Below the pieces are notes generated by a model. That model made no database searches, had not been told where the DNA came from, and saw nothing but the letters and a program-made list of their open reading frames with translations. Positions 3,904 through 39,063 of a stretch of 64,000 nucleotides of DNA are shown piece after piece. Both the position numbers and the translations under genes were made by a program. How positions within the stretch are numbered: position 1 is the stretch's first letter; each line of letters starts with the position of its first letter. The DNA is from an uncultured Acidobacteriota bacterium (GTDB lineage: Bacteria; Acidobacteriota; Terriglobia; UBA7540), in the NCBI GenBank assembly GCA_963804995.1, contig CAWDSK010000003.1:768001-832000 (forward strand). Reading direction: 5' to 3'.

Positions 3904-4157
3904 GACTTGTGCTTCGGGTTGCTGCTGCGAGCAGAAAACTGGCGGATGCCGTATGGCGCGGGTAGCCACAGTCAGTGGTTTCCTGACTGTGGGTTCTTCC
4001 TGACGAGGGTCTCTGGTCGGCCCGGAAGAACTCCGCTTGGTGTTGGGTTGACCGTGAACTGGAAATCTCAAGGTTTGGCGGGCATCCCTCGACAATCGCC
4101 AATCAGACATTTCGTCTGTGTGGTAGACTCATGCCCGTCCCAACCAGGAGGTTTGAC

Positions 4158-5294
4158 ATGCCAAACGACTCCGTTTCTCGCCGAGAGTTTCTGCATAACA
4201 TGGCCGCCGGTTCGACGGGTGCGGCGCTGGGCACGGTGCTTGCCGGCGCGCCCGCGAGCGCCGCCCACCCCGCGGTCGACGCCGAGCCGCCCTTTCCCCG
4301 TACCATGGAATCCTATCCCATCGTCCAGCCCGGCAAGGAAACCGATCGATTCAAGATCGTGAGCAAGTTTAATATGCCCGACTCTTTTGTGGAGCGCATC
4401 CGCGCCCTGTCACCGGGAATCGACCTGAAGACGCATCTTTCCCGCGACGCAATGCTCCGCGAGATTGCGGACGCCCACGTTTTGTACGGGCATTTTACGC
4501 GCGAGGAGTATGACGCTGGCAAGCGCCTGCGGTGGATTCAGTGGAGCGCCGCCGGGGTCGAAGAGATCATGTGGCCTGACCTGATCGCAAGCCCGATAGT
4601 GCTCACCAACATGCAGCGGTACTTTGCACCGGTCATCTCCGAAACCGCGATTGGGCTCATGCTCGCGCTCGCGCACGGCATTGGGCGCTACGCCGTCCAG
4701 ACTGAGCGCCATGAGTGGAAGGAAATTGAGAATTTGAATGAAATCAGCGGCATGACGCTGGGCATGGTCGGCCTGGGAGGGATTGGCACGGAAACGGCCC
4801 GTCGCGCCCACTTTGGATTTGGCATGACCGTCCTCGCCGTCGATCCCAAGCCCCTTCCCAAGCCCGATTTCGTGGCCGAACTGCACTCACTCGACTATCT
4901 GCCGCAGATGGCGGGGCGCGCGGACATTCTGATGTGCGCGGCGCCCCATACGCGGGTGTCCGAGGGGATGTTAAATGAGTCCATCTTCCGCGCTATGAAG
5001 AAGTCGGCGTACTTCATCAATATGTCGCGCGGTCCGATCGTGGATACGCCGGCCTTGGTGCGAGCCCTCAAAGAGGGCCGGATTGCCGGCGCGGGACTCA
5101 ACGTGGCTTACAAGGAACCCCTTCCTCCTGATGACGAGTTGTGGACGGCTCCGAATATCATCATCACCTGCCATACGTCCGGCAATTCGCCCAAGGTGGA
5201 GGGTCGCCAATTGGAACTCTTCACTGAAAACGTGCGCCGCTACGTCGCCGGTTTGCCTTTGCTTAACGTGGTGGATAAACAGCGCGGGTATTAG
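4158..5294 (+). CDS. D-2-hydroxyacid dehydrogenase family protein with a Tat-like signal
   Basis: SRREFL plus a hydrophobic stretch; GLGGIG, INMSRG, EPLP and TCHTSG motifs. GGAGG SD precedes ATG 4158. Confidence 0.85.
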   Translation: MPNDSVSRREFLHNMAAGSTGAALGTVLAGAPASAAHPAVDAEPPFPRTMESYPIVQPGKETDRFKIVSKFNMPDSFVERIRALSPGIDLKTHLSRDAMLREIADAHVLYGHFTREEYDAGKRLRWIQWSAAGVEEIMWPDLIASPIVLTNMQRYFAPVISETAIGLMLALAHGIGRYAVQTERHEWKEIENLNEISGMTLGMVGLGGIGTETARRAHFGFGMTVLAVDPKPLPKPDFVAELHSLDYLPQMAGRADILMCAAPHTRVSEGMLNESIFRAMKKSAYFINMSRGPIVDTPALVRALKEGRIAGAGLNVAYKEPLPPDDELWTAPNIIITCHTSGNSPKVEGRQLELFTENVRRYVAGLPLLNVVDKQRGY

Positions 5295-5305
5295 ATCGGG
5301 ATGGT

Positions 5306-5361
5306 GGGTAGCCACGGAGTCGCCGCGGCTGAAAGTCCGCCAATCTTAATGGTGGACGACC
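5306..5361. repeat. Dispersed ~56-bp repeat (inverted copy at 47888-47943, partial copy at 47503-47526)
   Basis: Core AAGTCCGCCAATCTTAAYGGTGGRCGACC is shared with the 47888 copy. Confidence 0.7.
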
Positions 5362-5503
5362 CCTTCTGTCCGTGAACTTTTCTCATGTCCGCGGGTGGCG
5401 CATACGGCCCGACGCACTTTGTCCGGATGTATGCGGCCTTGATGCACCAAGTGAGGTGATCACATACATGCCAAAACGCGTCAGGTATCCGTCAGCCGAC
5501 GGA

Positions 5504-5558
5504 TTCCAGTGCGGCCTTTCACTTCGTGTTCGCGACAAGAAATATCGTATCGCTGCTG
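5504..5558 (+). repeat. 55-bp direct repeat, left of the AbrB-VapC module
   Basis: TTCCAGTGCGGCCTTTCACTTCGTGTTCGCGACAAGAAATATCGTATCGCTGCTG aligns without gaps to 6400-6454. Confidence 0.8.
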
Positions 5559-5624
5559 GAATTTGGGAAGATCCGCGGAGGAATCCGCCGGCTGGCGGAT
5601 ACCTCGAAGCTACCGGCTTACGGC

Positions 5625-6037
5625 TCAGGGAATCAGCTTAAGGTGTGGGAAACGGCGGAAGTCCTTCTTGTTGAAGGTGGCCAACACCGGGGTTTTGGTT
5701 TCCTCGGCCAGAGCGACAAGATAGGCGTCCACGATTTCGATGTTGTGGGCGCGGTAAATCTCGATACACCGCGAAACCACCCGCGGCTCAAGCGCCGTCA
5801 CGCCCGGAAGTTCTCGAGGAGGGCCTCGAGCAAGCCCGCGATGTATTCCCGGCTGGCCCGGTAGAACGATTCCAAGGTCCAGACGACTTGGGCGATCACC
5901 AGGCTGGGGACGAGCAAGCGCAGGGCGCCCTCGCCCGCCTGCTCAAAAAGCCGTAGCGCCTGCCGCCGATGGGACGGATCATCTCCGAGAGCGTGGCGCA
6001 AAATTACATTGGTGTCCAGCAAGACTTCTTCAACCAT
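5625..6037 (-). pseudogene. vapC: VapC/PIN toxin, frameshifted near 5811-5816
   Basis: The N-terminal half (LLDTNVILR...LLEALLE) stops at 5798. The C-terminal half (LPGVTALE...IVDAYLVALAE...LATFNKKDFRRFPHLKLIP*) continues in another frame, consistent with a 2-bp insertion. Confidence 0.8.
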
Positions 6038-6290
6038 GGGCAAGCTCCCGCGCCGTCCTCGCGGCAACCGCTTTCTTCACGCGACGCCGGACTTCCGCGT
6101 CCGAAAGCCCCGGCTGCGGAGAACGCAAAGTTCCGGCCCAATGCACGATGGTCTTCCGCACCGGGCGCACCTTGATGCCGTCTGCCTCCTCTTCAAAGGC
6201 CACCCGGCTGCCCGCCCCCAGATTAAATCGCCGGCGCAATTCCTGCGGCAGCGTCACCTGCCCCTTGACGGTCAGGCGTGAGGTTTTCAT
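6030..6290 (-). CDS. AbrB/MazE/SpoVT-type antitoxin
   Basis: MKTSRLTVKGQVTLPQELRRRFNLGAGSRVAF; its stop overlaps the vapC start. Confidence 0.9.
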   Translation of the reverse strand: MKTSRLTVKGQVTLPQELRRRFNLGAGSRVAFEEEADGIKVRPVRKTIVHWAGTLRSPQPGLSDAEVRRRVKKAVAARTARELAHG

Positions 6291-6312
6291 ACACATTTTC
6301 CTCCAGGCTTCG

Positions 6313-6340
6313 GTATTACCATATCACAAAGAAGTATTAC
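6313..6340 (-). promoter_or_regulatory. Putative antitoxin operator
   Basis: Two GTA(A/T)TAC near-palindromes 21 bp apart just upstream of the antitoxin, overlapping TGaTATGGT (extended -10-like). Confidence 0.45.
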
Positions 6341-6399
6341 TATCCATCGGTGGTGGCAGCGCGAAGCAGCGGGCAGCGCACAGCTATGCGTATTTTGCG

Positions 6400-6454
6400 T
6401 TCCGGTGCGGTTTTTCACTTCGTGTTTGCGACCAGAAACATCGTAACGCTGCTG
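6400..6454 (+). repeat. 55-bp direct repeat, right of the AbrB-VapC module
   Basis: Partner of 5504-5558. Confidence 0.8.
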
Positions 6455-6530
6455 AGAAAACCGAGCCCCTTCGGGGCTCAAAAGTCAAAACTCCTGTTGC
6501 CAGCTACTCAACGGAGAACACCCCGACAGC

Positions 6531-6615
6531 CGGGCTGGCACAGGACGAGCGCAGCCCTCCGATTCTGGTGCGATTAGATGACGTGAAGCGCAGAGCTGCG
6601 CTCTCATCCCGCCCG
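6531..6615. repeat. REP doublet (REPIN-like), degenerate
   Basis: CGGGCTGGCACAGGACGAGCGCAGCCCTCCGATTCTGGTGCGATTAGATGACGTGAAGCGCAGAGCTGCGCT. Confidence 0.85.
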
Positions 6616-6642
6616 TCCGTGTCTGATAGTCAAAAGCCTCTT

Positions 6643-6921
6643 CTACACCAGCTCGATCGATACCCGTCGCCCCACCATGGCTGCTGCCCGCTGCAGGCTG
6701 GAAAGCGTGATGTCGTTTTTGGGATCGAGCAGACGGTCAACCTGGGTCCGGCTCGTCTTAAGCAGCGCCGCCATCCGCGACTTGGATATTTTCTTTTTCT
6801 TCATGGCCTGGGCGAGCTGCCACGCCACCACCTCCTTAATGGCCTGAGCTTGCGCCTCTTCAAAGATGCCTTCCTCCCTGAGAAAATTATCGAGGCTCGA
6901 ACCCATATGTTTCTTGCTCAT
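6643..6921 (-). CDS. XRE/HigA-like HTH antitoxin with no adjacent toxin
   Basis: HMGSSLDNFLREEG...MAALLKTSRTQVDRLLDP..ITLSSLQRAA is typical of antitoxins that follow RelE/Gp49-like toxins. Confidence 0.8.
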   Translation of the reverse strand: MSKKHMGSSLDNFLREEGIFEEAQAQAIKEVVAWQLAQAMKKKKISKSRMAALLKTSRTQVDRLLDPKNDITLSSLQRAAAMVGRRVSIELV

Positions 6922-6944
6922 GGCTCTAACTCCTTATGGATCAG

Positions 6945-6962
6945 TGTACCTTATAATGTACA
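6945..6962. promoter_or_regulatory. Palindromic operator-like site upstream of the XRE gene
   Basis: TGTACCTTATAATGTACA near-palindrome about 24 nt upstream of the ATG. Confidence 0.45.
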
Positions 6963-6990
6963 GGCGAGCAAGCTCATTAACCTAAAGCTG

Positions 6991-7079
6991 GGCCGGTTGG
7001 CGCAGGGCGAGCGTAGCCCTGCGATTCTGGTGCGTTTAGATGACCTGAAGCGCAGAGCTGCGCTCCGCGCCAGCCCGCC
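6991..7079. repeat. REP doublet (REPIN-like)
   Basis: GGCGCAGGGCGAGCGTAGCCCTGCG hairpin, conserved spacer, and GCGCCAGCCCGCC end. Confidence 0.9.
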
Positions 7080-7145
7080 TCTGCTACCCTGCTCCGAAAA
7101 ACTGCGCTAGAACCAGGGGGAATAGAAGCGTAGAATAGTGGGGTT

Positions 7146-7628
7146 ATGTCCTTTAAAGTTTTCTTGAGTCACAGCCTCGATCCTGCCGAGCAAGCGCTGG
7201 CTTGGCGGTTGCAAACCCTGGCGGCTGCACACGGCATTGAGATGTACGTGCCACGCCGCGGGTTTACGTTTCCTTCGAGAATGATTGGCGCGGGCGGCGT
7301 TGAGAAGGCCATTGATCGCGCGGACTGTGTTTTGGCGATTATCACTGCGGAAGCGAATGCGAGCGTCCAGAAAGAGCTTAAATATGCTCTCGCAAAACGA
7401 AAGCTTGTAATCCCCATTGTGCACTCGGAAGTGCCGAGCAATGGCCTCGTTGCGCAATTTCCCCGTGTCTTCACATTCTCGCCAGGGGACAATCCGGGAA
7501 AGGTTGAGGCGGAAGTTGTCGAATTCCTGCAACAGCAACACCTCAGTAAGGGAAAACGGCAAGCAGCCGGAGCCCTTGTCGCAGCGGGCCTCGCCTTGCT
7601 TCTACTCTTCTCACTTAGCGAAAAATAG
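7146..7628 (+). CDS. TIR-domain protein with a C-terminal hydrophobic (TM) helix
   Basis: KVFLSHS; AIDRADCVLAIIT; SVQKELKYAL (catalytic Glu position); KLVIPIV; C-terminal AAGALVAAGLALLLLFSL. Confidence 0.8.
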   Translation: MSFKVFLSHSLDPAEQALAWRLQTLAAAHGIEMYVPRRGFTFPSRMIGAGGVEKAIDRADCVLAIITAEANASVQKELKYALAKRKLVIPIVHSEVPSNGLVAQFPRVFTFSPGDNPGKVEAEVVEFLQQQHLSKGKRQAAGALVAAGLALLLLFSLSEK

Positions 7629-8122
7629 TGCGTATTGCCGTCGTAGACAGTTCCCCGCTCATTTACCTCACGCACCTCGGCCTCGCCGCAGAGCTATCCA
7701 GGTTTTTCGATGTCGTTTATGTCCCGCGAGTAGTTCATGAGGAAGTGAACAGGAAGGGCCGATTTCGGTATCGCCTTAAGAAACTGTACCAATCCGGCTG
7801 CTTTCTAAGATGCATGGCAGCGGACAGGACAAATGTCCGCTTACTGATGGCTCAATTACACGAAGGCGAGTCTGAGGCTCTTGTTCAAGCGGAGGAAAAG
7901 GCCGCTGAGTTCTTCATCGGTGATGAAAAGGATGCACGTGAGATTGGCAGGCTCAAGGGATTTAAACCTGTGGGAACAGTCCGCCTCCTGGCGCGACTGC
8001 ACCTTGAGGGTCGAGCCACGGATCCCCTAGCCTTGGTGCGAAAGCTCCGTCGAGACCTCAACTTCCGAGCTACTGAGACCGTAGTGAACGAAGCAATTGC
8101 GATGGCTTCCCAACCCATCTGA
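7628..8122 (+). CDS. PIN-domain ribonuclease (DUF3368-like)
   Basis: VVDSSPLIYL, VPRVVHEE, LHEGESEAL, IGDEKDAR, GTVRLL. The GTG start overlaps the TIR stop (TAGTG). Confidence 0.85.
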   Translation: MRIAVVDSSPLIYLTHLGLAAELSRFFDVVYVPRVVHEEVNRKGRFRYRLKKLYQSGCFLRCMAADRTNVRLLMAQLHEGESEALVQAEEKAAEFFIGDEKDAREIGRLKGFKPVGTVRLLARLHLEGRATDPLALVRKLRRDLNFRATETVVNEAIAMASQPI

Positions 8123-8150
8123 AAGAGGCTTACACCGAGCAGGCGGTCAC

Positions 8151-8239
8151 GGACGGCTGGCGCAGGGCGAGCGCAGCCCTGCGATTCTGGTGCGATTAGA
8201 TGACGTGAATCGCAGACCTGCGCTATGCGCCAGCCCGCC
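8151..8239. repeat. REP doublet (REPIN-like), best-conserved copy
   Basis: GGCTGGCGCAGGGCGAGCGCAGCCCTGCGATTCTGGTGCGATTAGATGACGTGAATCGCAGACCTGCGCTATGCGCCAGCCCGCC. Confidence 0.9.
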
Positions 8240-8458
8240 AGTTTCCGAACAGGCAACGATATAGGATACCCTCCGGCGTCTCAGAGGATCCGTGTTGGAC
8301 GAGAGCCATTTTCCGTGATGGTGACTTTTCAGGCGGGATCCGACGTAGCAGTGAAACCTCGTGAGCGGCCACAACTTGCAGTTGGTCGAGCGAAGGAGTT
8401 TGTCGGCGAACAATCGGAGAGCACATTCCGAGTGGGCGGACTTGAAGGAGTTGGGCGA

Positions 8459-8803
8459 CTACGCGGCGCTTCGGCGGAATACGGGATGGTCTTGGTGAAT
8501 CTGGGGATGCGCGGGGGCGGTTTTCCGATAAATGAACACGATTTTACCGGGCTCGGCGGCGTCTTCGAGATCGAGTTCGAGTCCGCAGTCATTTACGAAA
8601 TGGTCGCGAATGGCTTGGGCGGCGCTGAGTGTGAACGCTTCACGGTAGATTAGGCCATCACCCAGGTCCGCTACGAGGTGGTTTTGGAAAAACGGCCCGC
8701 GCGGGTCTTTGGCTGTGCCCACGCACCAGTCGCTCGGACTGCCACCGAATTTCTGAATGTGCTGTTCGATCTCAGCGATAATCTCGCCGCGATTGCTGGG
8801 CAT
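8459..8803 (-). CDS. Small hypothetical protein, possibly a degenerate GIY-YIG-like fold
   Basis: DWCVGTAKDPR...NH...IYREA...AQAIRDH...VFIYRKT resembles the WYVGIxxDP pattern. Confidence 0.5.
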   Translation of the reverse strand: MPSNRGEIIAEIEQHIQKFGGSPSDWCVGTAKDPRGPFFQNHLVADLGDGLIYREAFTLSAAQAIRDHFVNDCGLELDLEDAAEPGKIVFIYRKTAPAHPQIHQDHPVFRRSAA

Positions 8804-8820
8804 GGTTGTGGCCCTCTCCC

Positions 8821-8883
8821 GGACCAACTGACTTGATTTGCCCTAAGTCGCAAAACTGGGCTCGTTCTGCGCCAGCCGGCTAC
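8821..8883 (+). repeat. Degenerate copy of the RAYT right end (last codons plus REP)
   Basis: GGACCAACTGACTTGATTTGCCCTAAGTCGCA...CTGCGCCAGCCGGCTAC aligns to GGACCGGTTGAGTTGACTCGCACTAAGTCGCA...CTGCGCCAGCCAGCCC at 10093-10154. Confidence 0.75.
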
Positions 8884-8887
8884 TCGA

Positions 8888-9388
8888 TCACATCTTTATG
8901 GGCGGCGAGTATATTATTACCTCGCCTGGCCTGTCGTAAGGAGGGAATGCGCCGTAGAGTTCCCGCTTGATGACTCTTTTCGCGTCGAAGTAGATATGAA
9001 CCGAGTATGTGTCGGCGCCGTGGGCCCCTCCGGTCACAAGCATAAAGGTTCCCTTTTCCAATGTTAGCTGTGCTCCTCTCACATTGAAAAGGGTCGCATA
9101 GGCATCCCAGGGAACCGCCAGTGCCTTCCCATCGACAACAATGGTCATGTCCTCAACAAAGGAGGCCTCATTGTAGCCGTCCTTTAGAAACACGGGAAAA
9201 CCTGGATCGGACTTGTTCAGCAGGATGGTGCGGAATGTAATCTGTACCTTCTTGCCTCCCAGCACTGCCTGCAGAGAAGCTTCGCCCGACTTTGGGATCT
9301 TCACTTCGTCCGGCGCAGCATGGGAAAAACCGGTAGCCAACAAACAGGAAATGACAACCGTAAGCAGAGTACGCGCCGGATAGTTCAT
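8888..9388 (-). CDS. Secreted hypothetical protein
   Basis: Sec signal peptide (MNYPARTLLTVVISCLLATGFSHA), GGAGG SD, 166 aa. Confidence 0.75.
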   Translation of the reverse strand: MNYPARTLLTVVISCLLATGFSHAAPDEVKIPKSGEASLQAVLGGKKVQITFRTILLNKSDPGFPVFLKDGYNEASFVEDMTIVVDGKALAVPWDAYATLFNVRGAQLTLEKGTFMLVTGGAHGADTYSVHIYFDAKRVIKRELYGAFPPYDRPGEVIIYSPPIKM

Positions 9389-9486
9389 TTCACCACCTCC
9401 AAATCACGAATTCCACTGTTTCCGATGGACTCTAAAACGTTCAAAGGCTCAACTATGCAACCCTGCGAATCACCCATTGTTTTAAA

Positions 9487-10154
9487 GGCGGGCTGGCGCA
9501 GAGCGAGCTCAGCTCTGCGATTCACGTCTCTGACCCTACCCGCCGATATAATTATTATGCCGATCTATGGACGCCATTTCGAGCCCGGCCAGTTGCAGTT
9601 CATCACCACCAGCACTTATCGCCGCAGCCGGCTATTTACCTGTCAGCGCTTCTGCTGGACCTTTGTCGAAACTCTCCGCCAAGTCCGCCAGGAGACCGGA
9701 TTCCTCCTGATTGGCTGGGTGTTAATGCCGGAACACTTTCACCTGCTCCTTAAACCCCAACCCGCCGAGCAAATCGTCCGCTTCATGCAGGAGCTCAAGA
9801 AGCGATCCGCGCAGCAGATTATCGCCGCCCTTGCCAGGAATCAACACCAGCCCACGTGCCGCACCACGCTGGCCCGGCTGCAACTGCCCCCCACCGTCCA
9901 CAGTGATTCGCACTATCGGCTGTGGCAGAGGCGCTATGTCCCGTTTAACGTTTTCACGGAGAAAAACCGCTTGCAGAAGCTCAACTACATGCACGGCAAT
10001 CCGGTAAAGAGAAGGCTGGTGAGCTCTCCCGATCAATGGCCCTGGTCAAGCTTTCGATTCTATTATCTGAATGATTCGTCCGTCTTGAGCATGGACCGGT
10101 TGAGTTGACTCGCACTAAGTCGCAGGGCTGCGCTCGCCCTGCGCCAGCCAGCCC
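9487..10154 (+). mobile_element. RAYT locus: transposase between inverted REP hairpins
   Basis: Left REP 9487-9528 (GCGCAGAGCGAGCTCAGCTCTGCG) and right REP 10110-10154 (CGCAGGGCTGCGCTCGCCCTGCG) in inverted orientation. Confidence 0.85.
9557..10108 (+). CDS. rayT: REP-associated tyrosine transposase (HUH/Y1)
   Basis: FITTST, WVLMPEHFHLL (HUH), LWQRRY, NYMHGNPVK (catalytic Tyr), WPWSS. TATAAT lies just upstream of ATG 9557. Confidence 0.9.
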   Translation: MPIYGRHFEPGQLQFITTSTYRRSRLFTCQRFCWTFVETLRQVRQETGFLLIGWVLMPEHFHLLLKPQPAEQIVRFMQELKKRSAQQIIAALARNQHQPTCRTTLARLQLPPTVHSDSHYRLWQRRYVPFNVFTEKNRLQKLNYMHGNPVKRRLVSSPDQWPWSSFRFYYLNDSSVLSMDRLS

Positions 10155-12346
10155 GTATCGTTATCGTCGGATTCGAGAAGGAGGATGACGAAATTTAGTG
10201 GGGGGGGTGAAAGCACCGGGGCGTCCGGTAGGAGCGAATGGAGACGCCGCAGGGCCGCCAGAGCAAGTCAAAAGGCAAAGCGCAAAAGGCAAAAGTCAAA
10301 AGTGAGGCGTCCCCTCCTGAGAATCCCGCCCCCCGCGCAGTGCCCCCGACACTCCCCCCTATCGTTATCGGCGGGTGGGGCGACGAACGTGAGAGATTTT
10401 GAGACCGTCGAAAACCCTCGGCGAAAATGGGTTGGCTGCGCCGAAGGCGCTTTGGGAGTGCGGCCGCGAAGCTGCCGCTTTGGTGCGAACACGGCCGCGC
10501 CAATCAGGACTTCAGACGCAAGTTGCAACATTCGGATGCAAAATGGGCGGAGAGACCCCTCATCCGGCTTCGTCCCTCCGCCACCTTCTCCCTAGGGAGA
10601 AGGAACGAAGTCGCGGGGCGCGCGATCGCGCGCTGTAAACCCTGGGCGGCCGCGAAGCTGCCGCTTTTCTTTCCGCCCGGCGGGTTGCTGTCCCGGCTGT
10701 GGCGCGCGGCGGGAGCAGAAAGCGGTAGCTCCGCGACCGCACTCCGAAAGCGCGTCGCGCCCTCGAGGCCACGGTGATGAGGGGAAGGTCATCAACCGAT
10801 CGCGAAGGCGATGACACGCCGCGGAAGGTCGCTCCGCCGGTGCCGCCCTCTAGGGAGGTACTACTTCGGGAACGAAAATTTAAGCTCGCGGCCCATTTCG
10901 AAGACGGGCTTCTTGCGGCGCTTGATGAGTGTGGCGTTTTCGGAGAGGGCGGAAACCAGGATGGGCATGGCGATGGTCGAATCGCATTGCACGCTGACCA
11001 TGCTGGCGTCGTGCGCGATTTTCCCCCAGCTTTGAGCTTCTTCGAAGGTGCAGCCGGAAAGCCCGCCAAAGTGCGGTGCGTCAATCACGACCTGAATGGC
11101 ATACTTATGGCCTTCGGTCGATTTGCGCAGGAAGGCCGCGGTGACTTCCGTCTGCTGCACAAAGTTTTTCGGCGTACCTCCTCCAAAATAGACCACGCCG
11201 CAGGGTCGCAAGAGCAGGTCAAAAGGCAAAGCGCAAAGGCAAAAGTGAGGAGTCCCCTCCTGAGAATCCCGCCCCCCGCGCAGTGCCCCCGACACTCCCC
11301 CGTACCGTTATCGGCGGATTCCAGAAGGAGGATGACGAAATTTACTGGGGGGTGAAAGCACCGGGGCGTCCGGCGGGAGCGAATGGACACGCCGCAGGGC
11401 CGCAAGAGCAAGTCAAAAGGCAAAGCGCAAAAGGCAAAAGTCAAAAGTGAGGAGTCCTCGCCTGAGAATCCCGCCCCCCGCGCAGTACCCCCGACACTCC
11501 CCCGTATCGTTATCGGCGGGTGGGGCGACGAACATGAGAGATTTTGGGACCGTCGAAAACCCTCGGCGAAAATGGGTTGGCTGCGCCGAAGGCGCTTTGG
11601 GAGTGCGGCCGCGAAGCTGCCGCTTTGGTGCGAACACGGCCGCGCCAATCAGGACTTCAGACGCAAGTTGCAACATTCGGATGCAAAATGGGCGGAGAGA
11701 CCCCTCATCCGGCTTCGTCCCTCCGCCACCTTCTCCCTAGGGAGAAGGAACGAAGTCGCGGGGCGCGCGATCGCGCGCTGTAAACCCTGGGCGGCCGCGA
11801 AGCTGCCGCTTTTCTTTCCGCCCGGCGGGTTGCTGTCCCGGCTGTGGCGCGCGGCAGGAGCAGAAAGCGGTAGCTCCGCGACCGCACTCCGAAAGCGCGT
11901 TGCGCCCTCGAAGCCACGGTGATGAGGGGAAGGTCATCAACCGATCGCGAAGGCGATGACACGCCGCGGAAGGTCGCTCCGCCGGTGCCGCCCTCTAGGG
12001 AGGTACTACTTCGGGAACGAAAACTTAAGTTCGCGGCCCATCTCGAAGACGGGCTTTTTGCGGCGCTTGATGAGTGTGGCGTTTTCGGAGAGGGCGGAAA
12101 CCAGCATGGGCATGGCGATGGTGGAATCGCATTGCACGCTGACCATGCTGGCGTCGTGGGCGATTTTCCCCCAGCTTTGAGCTTCTTCGAAGGTGCAGCC
12201 GGAAAGCCCGCCAAAGTGCGGTGCGTCAATCACGACCTGAATGGCGTACTTATGGCCTTCGGTCGATTTGCGCAGGAAGGCGGCGGTGACCTCCGTCTGC
12301 TGCACGAAGTTCTTCGGCGTGCCTCCTCCAAAATAGACGACGCCGC
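10152..12346 (+). repeat. Near-tandem duplication: 10152-11201 and 11299-12346 (offset ~1145)
   Basis: Direct alignment. Includes a ~125-bp sub-repeat present three times (10244-10374, 11195-11317, 11389-11519), palindromic elements and the 3' third of the dhs-like gene. Confidence 0.95.
10861..11201 (-). pseudogene. 3' fragment of the deoxyhypusine-synthase-like gene
   Basis: GVVYFGGGTPKNF...FSFPK matches 12006-12346 except for one Ile/Met; no 5' part. Confidence 0.9.
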
Positions 12347-13043
12347 TATTGGGTGAGTCGCTGGCCAGGTGCGCGGTCTCCAGCACATCGCCGATCACAT
12401 CAAAGGTGAACTGGTTTTTGCCCTCATAGCGGTTTTCGGCGATGCCGATGCCGATGGAGGAGTCGCTCACCGCCGGGCAATAGAGGGGGACGCCGGCCTT
12501 GTAGGCGGCGGTCACGATGCCGTCTTCTTTGGCGCGCCGGGAGAGGTCCTTGCCCAACAGGTTCAAGAACTCCCGCGTCGTATAGGGCCGCGACTGGTCA
12601 AGTGTCGCCGCGAAGGCTCCAATCATGGCGTCGGCTTCGCGAAACTCCTCCTCATCGGCCAGGGTGTCATACATGCGGTCAATCAGGTTCTTCTGCAAAT
12701 GGACGTCGTCGATTTTGGGTGAACACTGAAAGTGCAGGCGGCCCAGAGTCTCATGAATGTCGTGGAAGAAATTGGCGCCGGTCGAAACCAGGCAATCAAT
12801 CAGGCGGTTCTTGATCAGATATACCACCAGCCGCCGCATGCCGGCGGGCACCATGGCGCCCGATAGGCCCATCATGATCATCACCCGGTCGCCCAGCATC
12901 TTTTTCCAAATCTGATAGGCAGTGGCCAGGTTGCGGCCCTGGAAGGAAATGCCCTGCATCTTTTCGAGTAATGCCGCGACACTCTTGCCGGCGTCGATCT
13001 TCAAGGGCCGGGTCGGTGTGGAGAGAATTTCGTGTTTGCGCAT
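12006..13043 (-). CDS. Deoxyhypusine synthase-like protein (homospermidine pathway, SpeY-like)
   Basis: GLSGAMVPAG, VSTGAN, CPAVSDSSIG, GGGTPKN, GGLSGCTFEEAQSWGK (catalytic Lys). Confidence 0.9.
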   Translation of the reverse strand: MRKHEILSTPTRPLKIDAGKSVAALLEKMQGISFQGRNLATAYQIWKKMLGDRVMIMMGLSGAMVPAGMRRLVVYLIKNRLIDCLVSTGANFFHDIHETLGRLHFQCSPKIDDVHLQKNLIDRMYDTLADEEEFREADAMIGAFAATLDQSRPYTTREFLNLLGKDLSRRAKEDGIVTAAYKAGVPLYCPAVSDSSIGIGIAENRYEGKNQFTFDVIGDVLETAHLASDSPNSGVVYFGGGTPKNFVQQTEVTAAFLRKSTEGHKYAIQVVIDAPHFGGLSGCTFEEAQSWGKIAHDASMVSVQCDSTIAMPMLVSALSENATLIKRRKKPVFEMGRELKFSFPK

Positions 13044-13119
13044 GACACCCCTTGGGATTCAAGCTCTTGCGGCTGGGACTCCGAGCAGGGCTCAGGAGGG
13101 TGGACGGAACCACGGTCCA

Positions 13120-13674
13120 TCACTCATCGACCCCCAGCAAGATGGCGGCGGAAAGCACGGTGGTCCACAGGCCGCGCTTGTCCCCAATGGCGGATTGGGT
13201 GATTTCCATCGTCCGGACAATCTTGTTGGAAATCTGGTAAATCTCCTTCTTCTCATTCCAGCTTCGATCCGGATCGAATTCGACGCCGAGCGTGGTGGCC
13301 AGCATTTCGGCCGCGAGCTCTTCCGCGTATTCCCCCGCCACTTCTTCGGTTTCTCCATAGGAATGATGCTCGGAGAGGTAGCCAAAAGTGTTGCGGTCGG
13401 AGGGAAGGGCGATTCCAATCGAGGCGGCAATCAGACGGTGCGGTTCGCGCGTGGAGTTCTCACTCATCACCACGAACGTTACCTGGCCGGGCCGCATCTC
13501 CTTCACGCCCTCGGAACGTGGAATCAATTTGCAACGCGGAGGAAAGATACTGGAAACCCTCACCAGGTTGCAAGCCGCAATGCCGGCGGAGCGCAACGCC
13601 AGCTCAAAGCTGGTCAGCTTCTCGCGGTGCTTCCCTACACCTTTGGTGAGAAACATCCGTTTGGGTACGAACAT
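13120..13674 (-). CDS. pdaD: Pyruvoyl-dependent arginine decarboxylase
   Basis: [22 protein letters not shown] (Ser-Ser cleavage site), [15 protein letters not shown]. Confidence 0.9.
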
Positions 13675-13935
13675 TCCTGTTCCTTCCTTCTCCGGGTGGT
13701 TACGGGCTTAATGGCTGAGGGCTATCAAGTCCGGTCCCAAGGATGGATTCTACTGTATCAAGCGGGAATTTTGTACCGTAACAAAAAACGAAGAAAAGTG
13801 TCAACGGACTTTTGGACGTGTCCCAGTTTGACGGAGAGGCAGCGGCAACCGATCTGGTCGGGACGCCGCCCTTGCGTAGAGGCTGAGGCATTTATCCCGA
13901 TCTGATCGGGACGCCGCCATCCAGCGAAGTGGGAC

Positions 13936-14037
13936 TGTCCCACATGTTGCTCTCCGCGCACCATAGCGCGCGAGGTCCCACTTAATTTCCCACCTTCATG
14001 CGTTTTTTTCCTATGACTTTTCACATGCGGATCCGCC
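13936..14037 (+). repeat. 102-bp TGT-terminated repeat (transposon-end-like)
   Basis: Gapless 84/102 match to the reverse complement of 58382-58483; partial copies at 34116-34170 and ~42856-42905. Confidence 0.85.
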
Positions 14038-27665: not shown

Positions 27666-27693
27666 GGCACGGGGCGCCGCAGCGCAGCCGCAA

Positions 27694-27826
27694 GGAGGGC
27701 TGGCGCAGGGCGAGCGCAGCCCTGCGATTTAGTGTGGATCAAGCATGCTCAAGACAGACGAATCATTCGCTGGCTCCGGTGATCGACGTGGATCGCATAG
27801 CTGAGCTCGCTATGCGCCAACCTGCC
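27694..27826 (-). mobile_element. Internally deleted RAYT derivative (both REP ends plus 25 nt of rayT 3' coding sequence)
   Basis: 27744-27768 matches the reverse complement of 10069-10093 at 24/25. Confidence 0.8.
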
Positions 27827-31902: not shown

Positions 31903-32080
31903 GGAGGCTGGCCGGCGCAGACTGAGCTTAGTTCCGCGATTCACATCTCTAACCCTGCCCACCGATATTTCTCTTCTGCCGATCTCTGAACGTTATTTCG
32001 AGCCCGGCCCGTGGCAGTTTATCTCCACCCAGACCTATCGCCGCAGCCGGCTATTTACGTATCAGGGCTTCGGCTGGAGC
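31903..32080 (+). pseudogene. Relic 5' end of a RAYT element (left REP plus first ~35 codons)
   Basis: LPISERYFEPGPWQFISTQTYRRSRLFTYQGFGW versus MPIYGRHFEPGQLQFITTSTYRRSRLFTCQRFCW; the ATG and TATAAT are mutated. Confidence 0.85.
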
Positions 32081-38163: not shown

Positions 38164-38350
38164 GTCCAGCGTGCCAAAAAGAAAACTTTTGCGTTATCTG
38201 GATTTGAGTGGTTTTTTGACGGTCCGCGGCACTTCGCTTGCAAATTCTTAGAATTCCGGAAACGGGCGGCCGCTTCGCCACTCCCAGCCGCGTAGCGGCG
38301 GCAGAATGTGGCCCATGGCGGGAGAAACTGTGAAAAAATCCCATCAAACC

Positions 38351-38430
38351 TTTCACCGCGGAGACGCGGAGGCGCAGAGGTTTGAAAACAAAGGGTCATT
38401 TCTCTGCGTCTCAGCGTCTCAGCGGTGAAA
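38351..38430. repeat. Inverted-repeat mini-element (CACCGC.GAGACGC.GAG type)
   Basis: 29-bp arms TTTCACCGCGGAGACGCGGAGGCGCAGAG / CTCTGCGTCTCAGCGTCTCAGCGGTGAAA. Confidence 0.8.
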
Positions 38431-38665
38431 GCAGAACATCACCTCGAACCTGATAAATGAGCGCGTAGGGATACTTGTTGGTCCGGCAGCGCCGGGTTCT
38501 TTTTGAGATCAGCGACCAGGCTTCGGGGTATTGGAGGATTCTTTCGAGGGTTCGTCTTACTTCCTGGGCAAATCGGGAGCCGAGCCCTGGCTCTTGTAAA
38601 TCATAATAGGCGATGGCCTCCGCCAACTCGGCTCGGGCCGGAGCCAAAAACTCAATGGCCATCAC
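38411..38665 (-). pseudogene. RelE/ParE toxin, C-terminus replaced by the mini-element
   Basis: ARAELAEAIAYY..PGLGSRF..RRC..KYPYALIY; the frame runs into the repeat (SPLRR*) before the usual VAVxH motif. Confidence 0.75.
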
Positions 38666-38892
38666 GGTTTCACGTTCTTGGTGGCACCGAAGACTTCGCG
38701 AGCGGAAACGGTTTTGATCTCACCACGCTCATATGCATCGAGACGCTCTTCCGCTTCCCGCCCCCATAATTCATCGATTCTACGCTCGGGCGAAGAATCA
38801 AGACTTGCCAGGAGACGGTCTATTACTTCTGCCCGCTCCGCAGGCGGAAGGGATAATGCCTCTTCCAGAACCTCTGTACCTTTCTTTGACAT
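38662..38892 (-). CDS. Addiction-module antitoxin (TIGR02574-like)
   Basis: EEALSLPPAERAEVIDRLLASLD...W..EAEERL...G. Confidence 0.85.
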   Translation of the reverse strand: MSKKGTEVLEEALSLPPAERAEVIDRLLASLDSSPERRIDELWGREAEERLDAYERGEIKTVSAREVFGATKNVKP

Positions 38893-38971
38893 GTCCGAGA
38901 CACCCCTTATATGCATTGTAGCATGGCCGGGATTCCCACGCTGGAGGGGCATGAACAATCAAACCTGTTTT

Positions 38972-39063
38972 GGGGGCTGGTTGGCGCAGAGCGAGCCCAG
39001 CTCTGCGATTCGTCCCTGATTGATAACGAAGAGCCGCGGACCTAAACAACAGGTCCGCGCTAC
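38972..39063. repeat. RAYT-left-end REP paired with a GTAG REP, upstream of the TA operon
   Basis: GGCGCAGAGCGAGCCCAGCTCTGCGATTCGTCCCTGA matches 9496-9533. Confidence 0.8.

Follow-up and report, generated by a model that had tools for sequence, protein, structure and literature searches.

The window analysed here is a 64,000-nucleotide stretch (G000:C3:768001-832000) of the genome of an uncultured Acidobacteriota bacterium (GenBank assembly GCA_963804995.1, contig CAWDSK010000003.1), which comprises 7.55 Mb in 9 contigs and has a GC content of 58%. (G numbers designate genomes, G000 being the source genome and the others its relatives; L numbers designate fetched loci, and C a contig.) Between positions 5306 and 10153, the window contains an island of small accessory modules: a vapC-abrB toxin-antitoxin (TA) module, an XRE antitoxin gene, a TIR-PIN gene pair, a gene here designated orfX, and a gene for a 166-amino-acid (aa) protein, followed by a short unit that carries an HUH transposase gene of the REP-associated tyrosine transposase (RAYT) type (Table 1), REP standing for repetitive extragenic palindrome. 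Copies of two families of hairpin repeats, here designated P and Q, lie among these genes. The original prediction, made from the P copies, was that doublets of inverted REPs (REPINs) may serve as capture or recombination joints of a RAYT-driven cassette system that uses no tyrosine recombinase.

The vapC-abrB and XRE modules change neighbours at Q between genomes. Q is a REPIN composed of two inverted GTAG-footed hairpins around a core, found in the window at 5480-5613 and 6372-6455. Altogether, 72 Q cores were identified in 15 genomes, and homologues of the modules were taken from 20 loci of the genus, the comparison covering 28 relatives. Q was present at one end or more in all eight vapC-abrB loci of the relatives and in five of their eight XRE loci. 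One left flank of Q (L1) was paired with five right-flank groups and two unique right flanks, and the right flank at the vapC end (R1) was paired with seven different left flanks. When the cores were restricted to those of G000 and of loci retrieved through Q alone (48 in total), 25 of their 92 flanks recurred across genomes, falling into 7 groups, and the recurring flanks stood in new left-right combinations. Since the genomes of kin are not independent, these Q counts are descriptive and carry no p-values. The modules were 87-95% identical between genomes, while the core genes of those genomes matched at 78-84%.

Genomes G018 and G036 form a filled/empty, reordered pair: G018 has the order Phd-vapC, Q, XRE-Gp49, Q, and a shared array end (R6), and in G036 the XRE-Gp49 module stands earlier and Phd-vapC is followed by Q and R6, the overlaps lying in Q. 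R6 extends for 115-390 bp before unrelated genes begin; considered as a conserved platform at the array end, it turned out to be a short module remnant, and the Q arrays adjoin different core genes. Neighbouring Q copies were co-oriented in 24 of 24 cases and mostly lay 770-1020 bp apart, and 17 of the 19 Q intervals of up to 2.3 kb in the relatives held TA-type genes in both orientations, as judged from Pfam matches of 21 selected frames or from sequences nearly identical to these. Neighbouring Q cores were 86% alike, versus 82-83% for other Q pairs, so that they represent two family members brought side by side and not fresh duplicates. No fixed or sharp crossover point was found in 61 aligned copies of Q, and the truncation points of Q vary (by eye). 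For the island as a whole, the empty-site comparison gave no result, as the core genes flanking it are not syntenic in the 28 relatives.

RAYT-type Y1 transposases and their miniatures fill G000 with repeats, and self-comparison identified 3222 repeat segments, which add up to ~500 kb and are spread over 2106 of the 4517 gaps that measure at least 60 bp (47%). Its TA genes (135 matches from six Pfam families) were grouped into 110 loci, and the noncoding DNA up to 800 bp on either side of each locus was compared. Same-family direct repeats bracketed 28 of the 110 loci, with 1.9 expected from swapped flanks; 20 loci had direct brackets only and none had inverted brackets only. Among controls, such brackets were present at 20 of the 300 short non-TA genes sampled and at 8 of 400 core-like ones (12 of 250 and 4 of 250, respectively, in a first run with other control samples). 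The brackets derived from many repeat families and were 35-429 bp long, and GTAG feet were not enriched in them (15/28 versus 1428/3222 in the background). Same-family pairs 400-2000 bp apart had a direct-to-inverted ratio of 26:2 when TA genes lay between them, 27:15 with a long gene between them (p = 0.009), and 73:32 otherwise, so that non-TA pairs show a milder local excess (100 direct versus 47 inverted). Pairs more than 5 kb apart were 50-53% direct, and replication-strand bias therefore does not explain the direct excess; GC skew, tried as a measure of such a bias behind the co-orientation, was too weak to use (7/21 doublets, p = 0.19). In a recently copied Phd-ParE pair (97.5% identity, 729 bp), one boundary of the copy falls within a repeat and the opposite boundary coincides with the stop codon of the pair. 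G000 also carries ~40 near-identical reverse transcriptase genes (e.g., C6:1709459-1710895), nearly all in one orientation per contig.

The repeats might have no joint function if TA genes and repeats simply gathered in tolerant intergenic hot spots, local hopping keeping the orientation. The presence of repeats in nearly half of the gaps, the finding that repeats of any family occur near TA genes about twice as often as repeat-free gaps, and the direct excess across non-TA sequence would all agree with this, as would the published clustering of REPs beside RAYT genes (PMC3116915, PMC8266576; here and below, statements on published work refer to the available parts of the papers cited). Conservation of promoters alone may also end homology next to a repeat. 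However, hot spots leave unexplained the recurrence of the same module-Q junction in several genomes with differing neighbours past Q, the reordered G018/G036 pair, and the TA-specific 26:2 ratio, and we consider this explanation unlikely. An even less probable one, to which we give little credence, is survival bias, whereby direct repeats delete the DNA between them unless it is addictive, so that TA modules remain. The stabilization of cassette arrays by TA genes is known (PMC7167474), but retention would at most level direct with inverted pairs, far from the ratio seen across TA genes, and broken modules (the frameshifted vapC and the toxin-less XRE gene) persist between direct repeats.

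P gave a different picture from Q. In the relatives, the same modules are present without P, the outcome that was to speak against the original prediction: no P arm was found within 1.4 kb of the modules at any of 22 loci (0/8 vapC-abrB, 0/8 XRE, and 0/6 TIR-PIN; four loci end at a contig edge). In G005, vapC-abrB stands directly beside the XRE module with Q as the junction and P absent. G017 has the same toxin-less XRE allele without P, and its homology stops at 6991, where P begins in the window. None of the 196 outer flanks of P recurred in another genome at less than 99% identity; the P flanks that genomes did have in common came only from same-strain records and one insertion sequence (IS), a metagenome scan having yielded nine loci. 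The genome-wide enrichment of TA genes beside P that the original prediction had led us to expect was not significant (8 of 85 P loci versus 125 of 2044 other repeats, p = 0.25). The P copies are likely later arrivals in the island. By local copying in the vicinity of the RAYT unit, P would have entered an island that had earlier been assembled at Q and would have replaced Q on both sides of the XRE gene. Coincidence in hot spots, unlikely as a general account, fits P well. The proposal that REPINs act as cassette joints without a tyrosine recombinase is supported through Q and many other families but not through P, the family on which it was founded.

The P arm family has 126 matches in G000 (E<=0.01) and none in the reversed genome. 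These arms represent either end of the RAYT unit (left or right) or miniatures of it with internal deletions, and they form 91 loci, 6 of which lie within 3.7 kb in the island. The RAYT unit with its P ends is mobile as a whole: a second copy at G000:C2:467408-468074 is 93.7% identical and has unrelated flanks, the full-length 667-bp unit with the same termini and unrelated flanks occurs in G005, G017, G035, and G039, and metagenome contigs that align to the island, which stem from other strains, break off sharply at 9487 and 10154. The terminus of P is sharp and has a conserved foot other than GTAG; neither a flank or target preference nor a target duplication was seen at P ends. Of the 10 doublets compared, those at 6991 and 8151 match each other best, which fits local copying. 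A role for P would be favoured by the co-orientation of its neighbouring doublets (10 of 10 pairs), by the orfX copies that begin at P right ends (see below), and by other P-interleaved strings in G000 (C6:1888642, C9:253106, and C5:606178).

Several further observations concern P and its unit. Additional P-family miniatures and a decayed RAYT start were seen in the window at 704-796, 27693-27826, and 31909-32009. Chimeras of repeat families (G000 C9:255957; L105:3230; L109:1156) join a P arm to the right half of Q or have a P-like arm that cuts the vapC end just past Q. The same IS-like element splits P left arms at an identical position three times (G000 C3:1379554, C6:1008235, and C6:237305). 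In L173 (2370-3677), a RAYT unit lies ~200 bp from a gene whose start, by eye, presumably resembles that of Cas9, and L186 / L191 (G018:C24:369909-373262) has a PIN-like gene enclosed by a direct pair of left-end halves of the RAYT unit.

The predicted GIY-YIG likeness of orfX stands as a lead only, since orfX had no Pfam or NCBIfam match. An orfX homologue was assigned by Atlas, at 0.94, to a cluster with 14% GIY-YIG; the predicted model had a pLDDT (predicted local distance difference test) score of 71, and the fold search, with a best Z of 4.7 to unrelated chains, listed no GIY-YIG match. Four of the five orfX copies in G000 begin at a P right end, with unrelated DNA past the terminus and variable far ends, and the four linked P arms differ in hairpin type. 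In the relatives, no P end was seen upstream of orfX homologues at nine loci (by eye). The orfX family has 233 homologues, with invariant residues in the first half and multiple copies in several genomes, and its genes are usually preceded by short tandem repeats.

As for the remaining layout of the island, most of what had been predicted was confirmed. The repeats reported at 6531, 6991, 8151, 8821, and 9487 are real members of P, the three full doublets share one orientation, and the HUH transposase flanked by the same repeats is intact, with an open 183-aa frame that scores 111 bits against NF047646 (cut-off 80). The first module has no P on its left and is bracketed by Q. The AbrB and PIN assignments of this module were recovered, but its vapC is frameshifted, related contigs lacking two bases at 5800-5815; this is either a sequencing error or real. 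The XRE-type helix-turn-helix (HTH) gene was likewise recovered, but its partner toxin, a 350-bp Gp49-type gene carried by the relatives, is deleted. In L050 (5505-5900), a hairpin repeat replaces ~60 bp within the Gp49 toxin gene, a combined insertion and deletion. The TIR-PIN module was confirmed in both of its genes and has homologues at six loci of the relatives, and no homologue of the 166-aa gene was found with this query in the 28 relatives.

The second TA module that had been noted, at 38411-38892, does lie 81 bp from a P left arm. The 114-bp element at 38317-38430 extends over the 3' end of parE; 14 or more further copies with 97-99% identity indicate that it expanded recently. To the right of the island, at 10152-12346, a 1050-bp segment made up of stacked repeats and the 3' portion of a deoxyhypusine-synthase-like gene is tandemly duplicated (96.8%), the first copy beginning at the right end of the RAYT unit.

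Table 1. Features of the island and of the second TA locus (positions in the window)
Feature	Position	Strand	Basis or remark
GTAG-footed repeat, unrelated, at left edge of island	5306..5440	.	Depth 35 in genome self-comparison
Q copy 1, REPIN of two inverted hairpins and ~64-bp core; left joint of vapC-abrB	5480..5613	+	
vapC, PIN toxin; frameshift near 5800-5815, frame open in relatives	5625..6037	-	Pfam
abrB/mazE-type antitoxin	6030..6296	-	PF04014, E 3.5e-10
Q copy 2, right part lost; repeats copy 1 in direct orientation at a distance of 896 bp	6372..6455	+	
P doublet 1: right and left arms of RAYT unit joined, interior deleted	6529..6617	+	
XRE antitoxin; Gp49/RelE-like toxin (~350 bp) deleted at 6938/6939	6643..6921	-	Pfam XRE-type HTH
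P doublet 2, begins at end of homology to P-free G017 allele	6991..7079	+	
TIR-domain gene and PIN-like gene, candidate defence pair	7146..8122	+	Pfam TIR; PADLOC PDC-S70
P doublet 3, best match doublet 2 (90%)	8151..8239	+	
orfX, 114 aa, weak GIY-YIG lead; five genome copies	8459..8803	-	
Solo P right end fused to ribosome-binding region of orfX	8821..8880	-	
166-aa gene, signal-peptide-like start (by eye)	8888..9388	-	
RAYT unit, 667 bp, inverted hairpin ends (9487-9523 / 10120-10153); gene 9557-10108	9487..10153	+	
ParE/addiction-module pair with P left arm (38973); young repeat of another kind, 38317-38430	38411..39012	-	Pfam

The sequence comparisons support a repeat-mediated shuffling of cassettes, and we lean slightly towards the reading that TA modules reassort at direct REP/REPIN repeats that act as portable homology and not as the sites of one dedicated recombinase. 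An incoming module would carry one repeat copy, as a circle, or would be a piece that ends in a repeat on one side or on both, and its repeat would be joined to a same-family copy already resident, giving the order repeat-module-repeat; repeated rounds would stack and reorder the modules. The joints would be provided, and perhaps nicked, by RAYTs, which would not be required for the exchange. The many bracket families and the diffuse crossovers favour such homology-driven joining, and recA is present in G000.

A number of points weigh against reassortment by homology. G000 also carries mutS, and RecA works poorly on repeats with a likeness of 72-95% over 35-150 bp. Neighbouring P doublets are co-oriented in 10 of 10 pairs, and P arms in the relatives often lie near TA or defence-like genes (by eye). 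The genome-wide counts build on a home-made gene call of 6223 genes and on a TA list confined to the six Pfam families, of the 72 Q cores, 24 stem from loci chosen because the modules of the window were there, and the comparison genomes are kin of other species, the best read run sharing 0.11 of words, so that neither a circle nor a single insertion event was seen. Finally, in L152, a RAYT gene (NF047646, 102.5 bits) is flanked by the hairpins of Q and lies between two direct Q cores, which indicates that a cognate enzyme of Q exists. The Q core reads like the first strand of an IS200 gene and had been considered a remnant of one, but Q flanks none of the 11 other Y1 genes of G000, and this idea was dropped because L152 links Q to a RAYT.

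The alternative to which L152 points is catalysis by RAYTs: the cognate HUH transposase would cut single-stranded DNA at the same hairpin of two direct REPINs, and the excised circle, made up of the module and one REPIN, would rejoin another REPIN, each RAYT family serving its own repeat. The RAYT of L152 (L152:1416-1934) occupies a slot used by TA modules, G000 has a 67% relative (C2:304788-305309), and fragments of the same family lie beside Q in L145 and L090. Cleavage and strand transfer by TnpA-REP near REPs have been described in vitro, together with a circle-excision model for bacterial interspersed mosaic elements (PMC3333891, PMC8266576). Catalysis would also explain how diverged repeats are joined despite mutS, and the orfX copies, with their P right ends and variable far ends, resemble products of one-ended HUH transposition, although the differing hairpin types of their four arms fit an exchange inside the arm equally. 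On the other hand, brackets from many families with no enrichment of GTAG feet, together with the absence of a fixed crossover and the varying truncation points in Q, speak against it, and TnpA-REP of Escherichia coli is monomeric, with no ready means of excising a circle (PMC3479197). We therefore regard RAYT catalysis as possible but doubtful. The same tentative standing applies to the wider proposal of an integrase-free acidobacterial system in which an HUH enzyme (RAYT) excises TA and defence genes as circles with one REPIN and reinserts them at any copy, thousands of REPINs constituting a distributed, genome-wide integron and the route along which TA systems of the chromosome move.

Reassortment at repeats, by whichever chemistry, invites comparison with integrons. 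Like integrons and clusters of attC sites lacking integron integrases (CALINs), the arrays have co-oriented structured joints ~1 kb apart, TA and defence cargo, and a changing gene order; they differ in the mixed orientation of the genes and in joints drawn from many repeat families. Searches for an integron integrase gave 11 PF00589 matches in G000, of which the nearest is broken and lies at a distance of ~105 kb, and the only tyrosine recombinase in the Q loci of the relatives was a piece in L152 that scored far below the integron-integrase cut-off. The attC boxes have the motif RYYYAAC ... GTTRRRY, which a simple pattern test detected in 0 of 72 Q and 0 of 126 P sequences. Rfam had no match in window positions 4000-14000, and no fixed platform (attI, promoter) was found at the array ends, which lie beside different core genes. 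The system is not an integron, though it is integron-like in layout. One-ended transposition of the IS91/ISCR type and homology-facilitated illegitimate recombination both produce one fixed repeat end and one variable end, as seen for orfX and the copied Phd-ParE pair, and the two routes are indistinguishable from these data; the enzyme here is, in contrast to IS91/ISCR, a short Y1 protein. In Acinetobacter plasmids, the pdif (XerC/D) modules, as far as the available descriptions go, are likewise small accessory modules, including TA modules, shuffled at short flanking sites, but these are dif sites served by a host tyrosine recombinase on plasmids, whereas here the joints are chromosomal hairpin repeats of 60-150 bp.

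Among the systems closest to the repeats are the REPtrons, or REPIN-RAYT systems (TnpA-REP of E. coli with its bacterial interspersed mosaic elements, and the REPINs of Pseudomonas; PMC3333891, PMC3116915, PMC8266576), with which they share an HUH/Y1 transposase of NF047646 and hairpin repeats that flank the RAYT gene and are dispersed as inverted doublets, also clustered near that gene. Q resembles REPtrons in its GTAG feet and cognate RAYT; the ends of P differ in having another foot. The P unit moves whole (two copies in G000, four relatives), whereas REPtrons are described, in the available parts of the literature, as having a single-copy gene at a fixed locus and as not transposing as a unit, and genes rather than linkers sit between the repeats here and reassort. 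Several RAYT groups are known, some with duplicates (PMC5581495, PMC6006769). TIRtron is the best label for the P unit, judged by its sequence against the available definition of a tyrosine transposase (TIRYT) gene between non-GTAG terminal inverted repeats (TIRs) with a family of TIR dimers (PMC3733652); that paper (Di Nocera et al. 2013) names an acidobacterial group, and its available text describes no cargo shuffling for TIRtrons. Links between REPs and TA genes have been noted before: a REPtron is replaced by hicAB in E. coli (PMC3333891), and REPs occur at a TA insertion locus in a study that calls TA integration unexplained (PMC7167474). No description of REP- or REPIN-bounded module shuffling was found in titles and abstract openings, though subscription papers and supplements may hold one.

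With a defined joint (Q), its cargo, a candidate cognate enzyme, and a signature of direct over inverted brackets, one route of TA gene movement becomes directly testable. If RAYTs catalysed the exchange, this would be a new kind of gene-cassette system; if joining were driven by homology, REP-type repeats would constitute a general docking grid for accessory genes.

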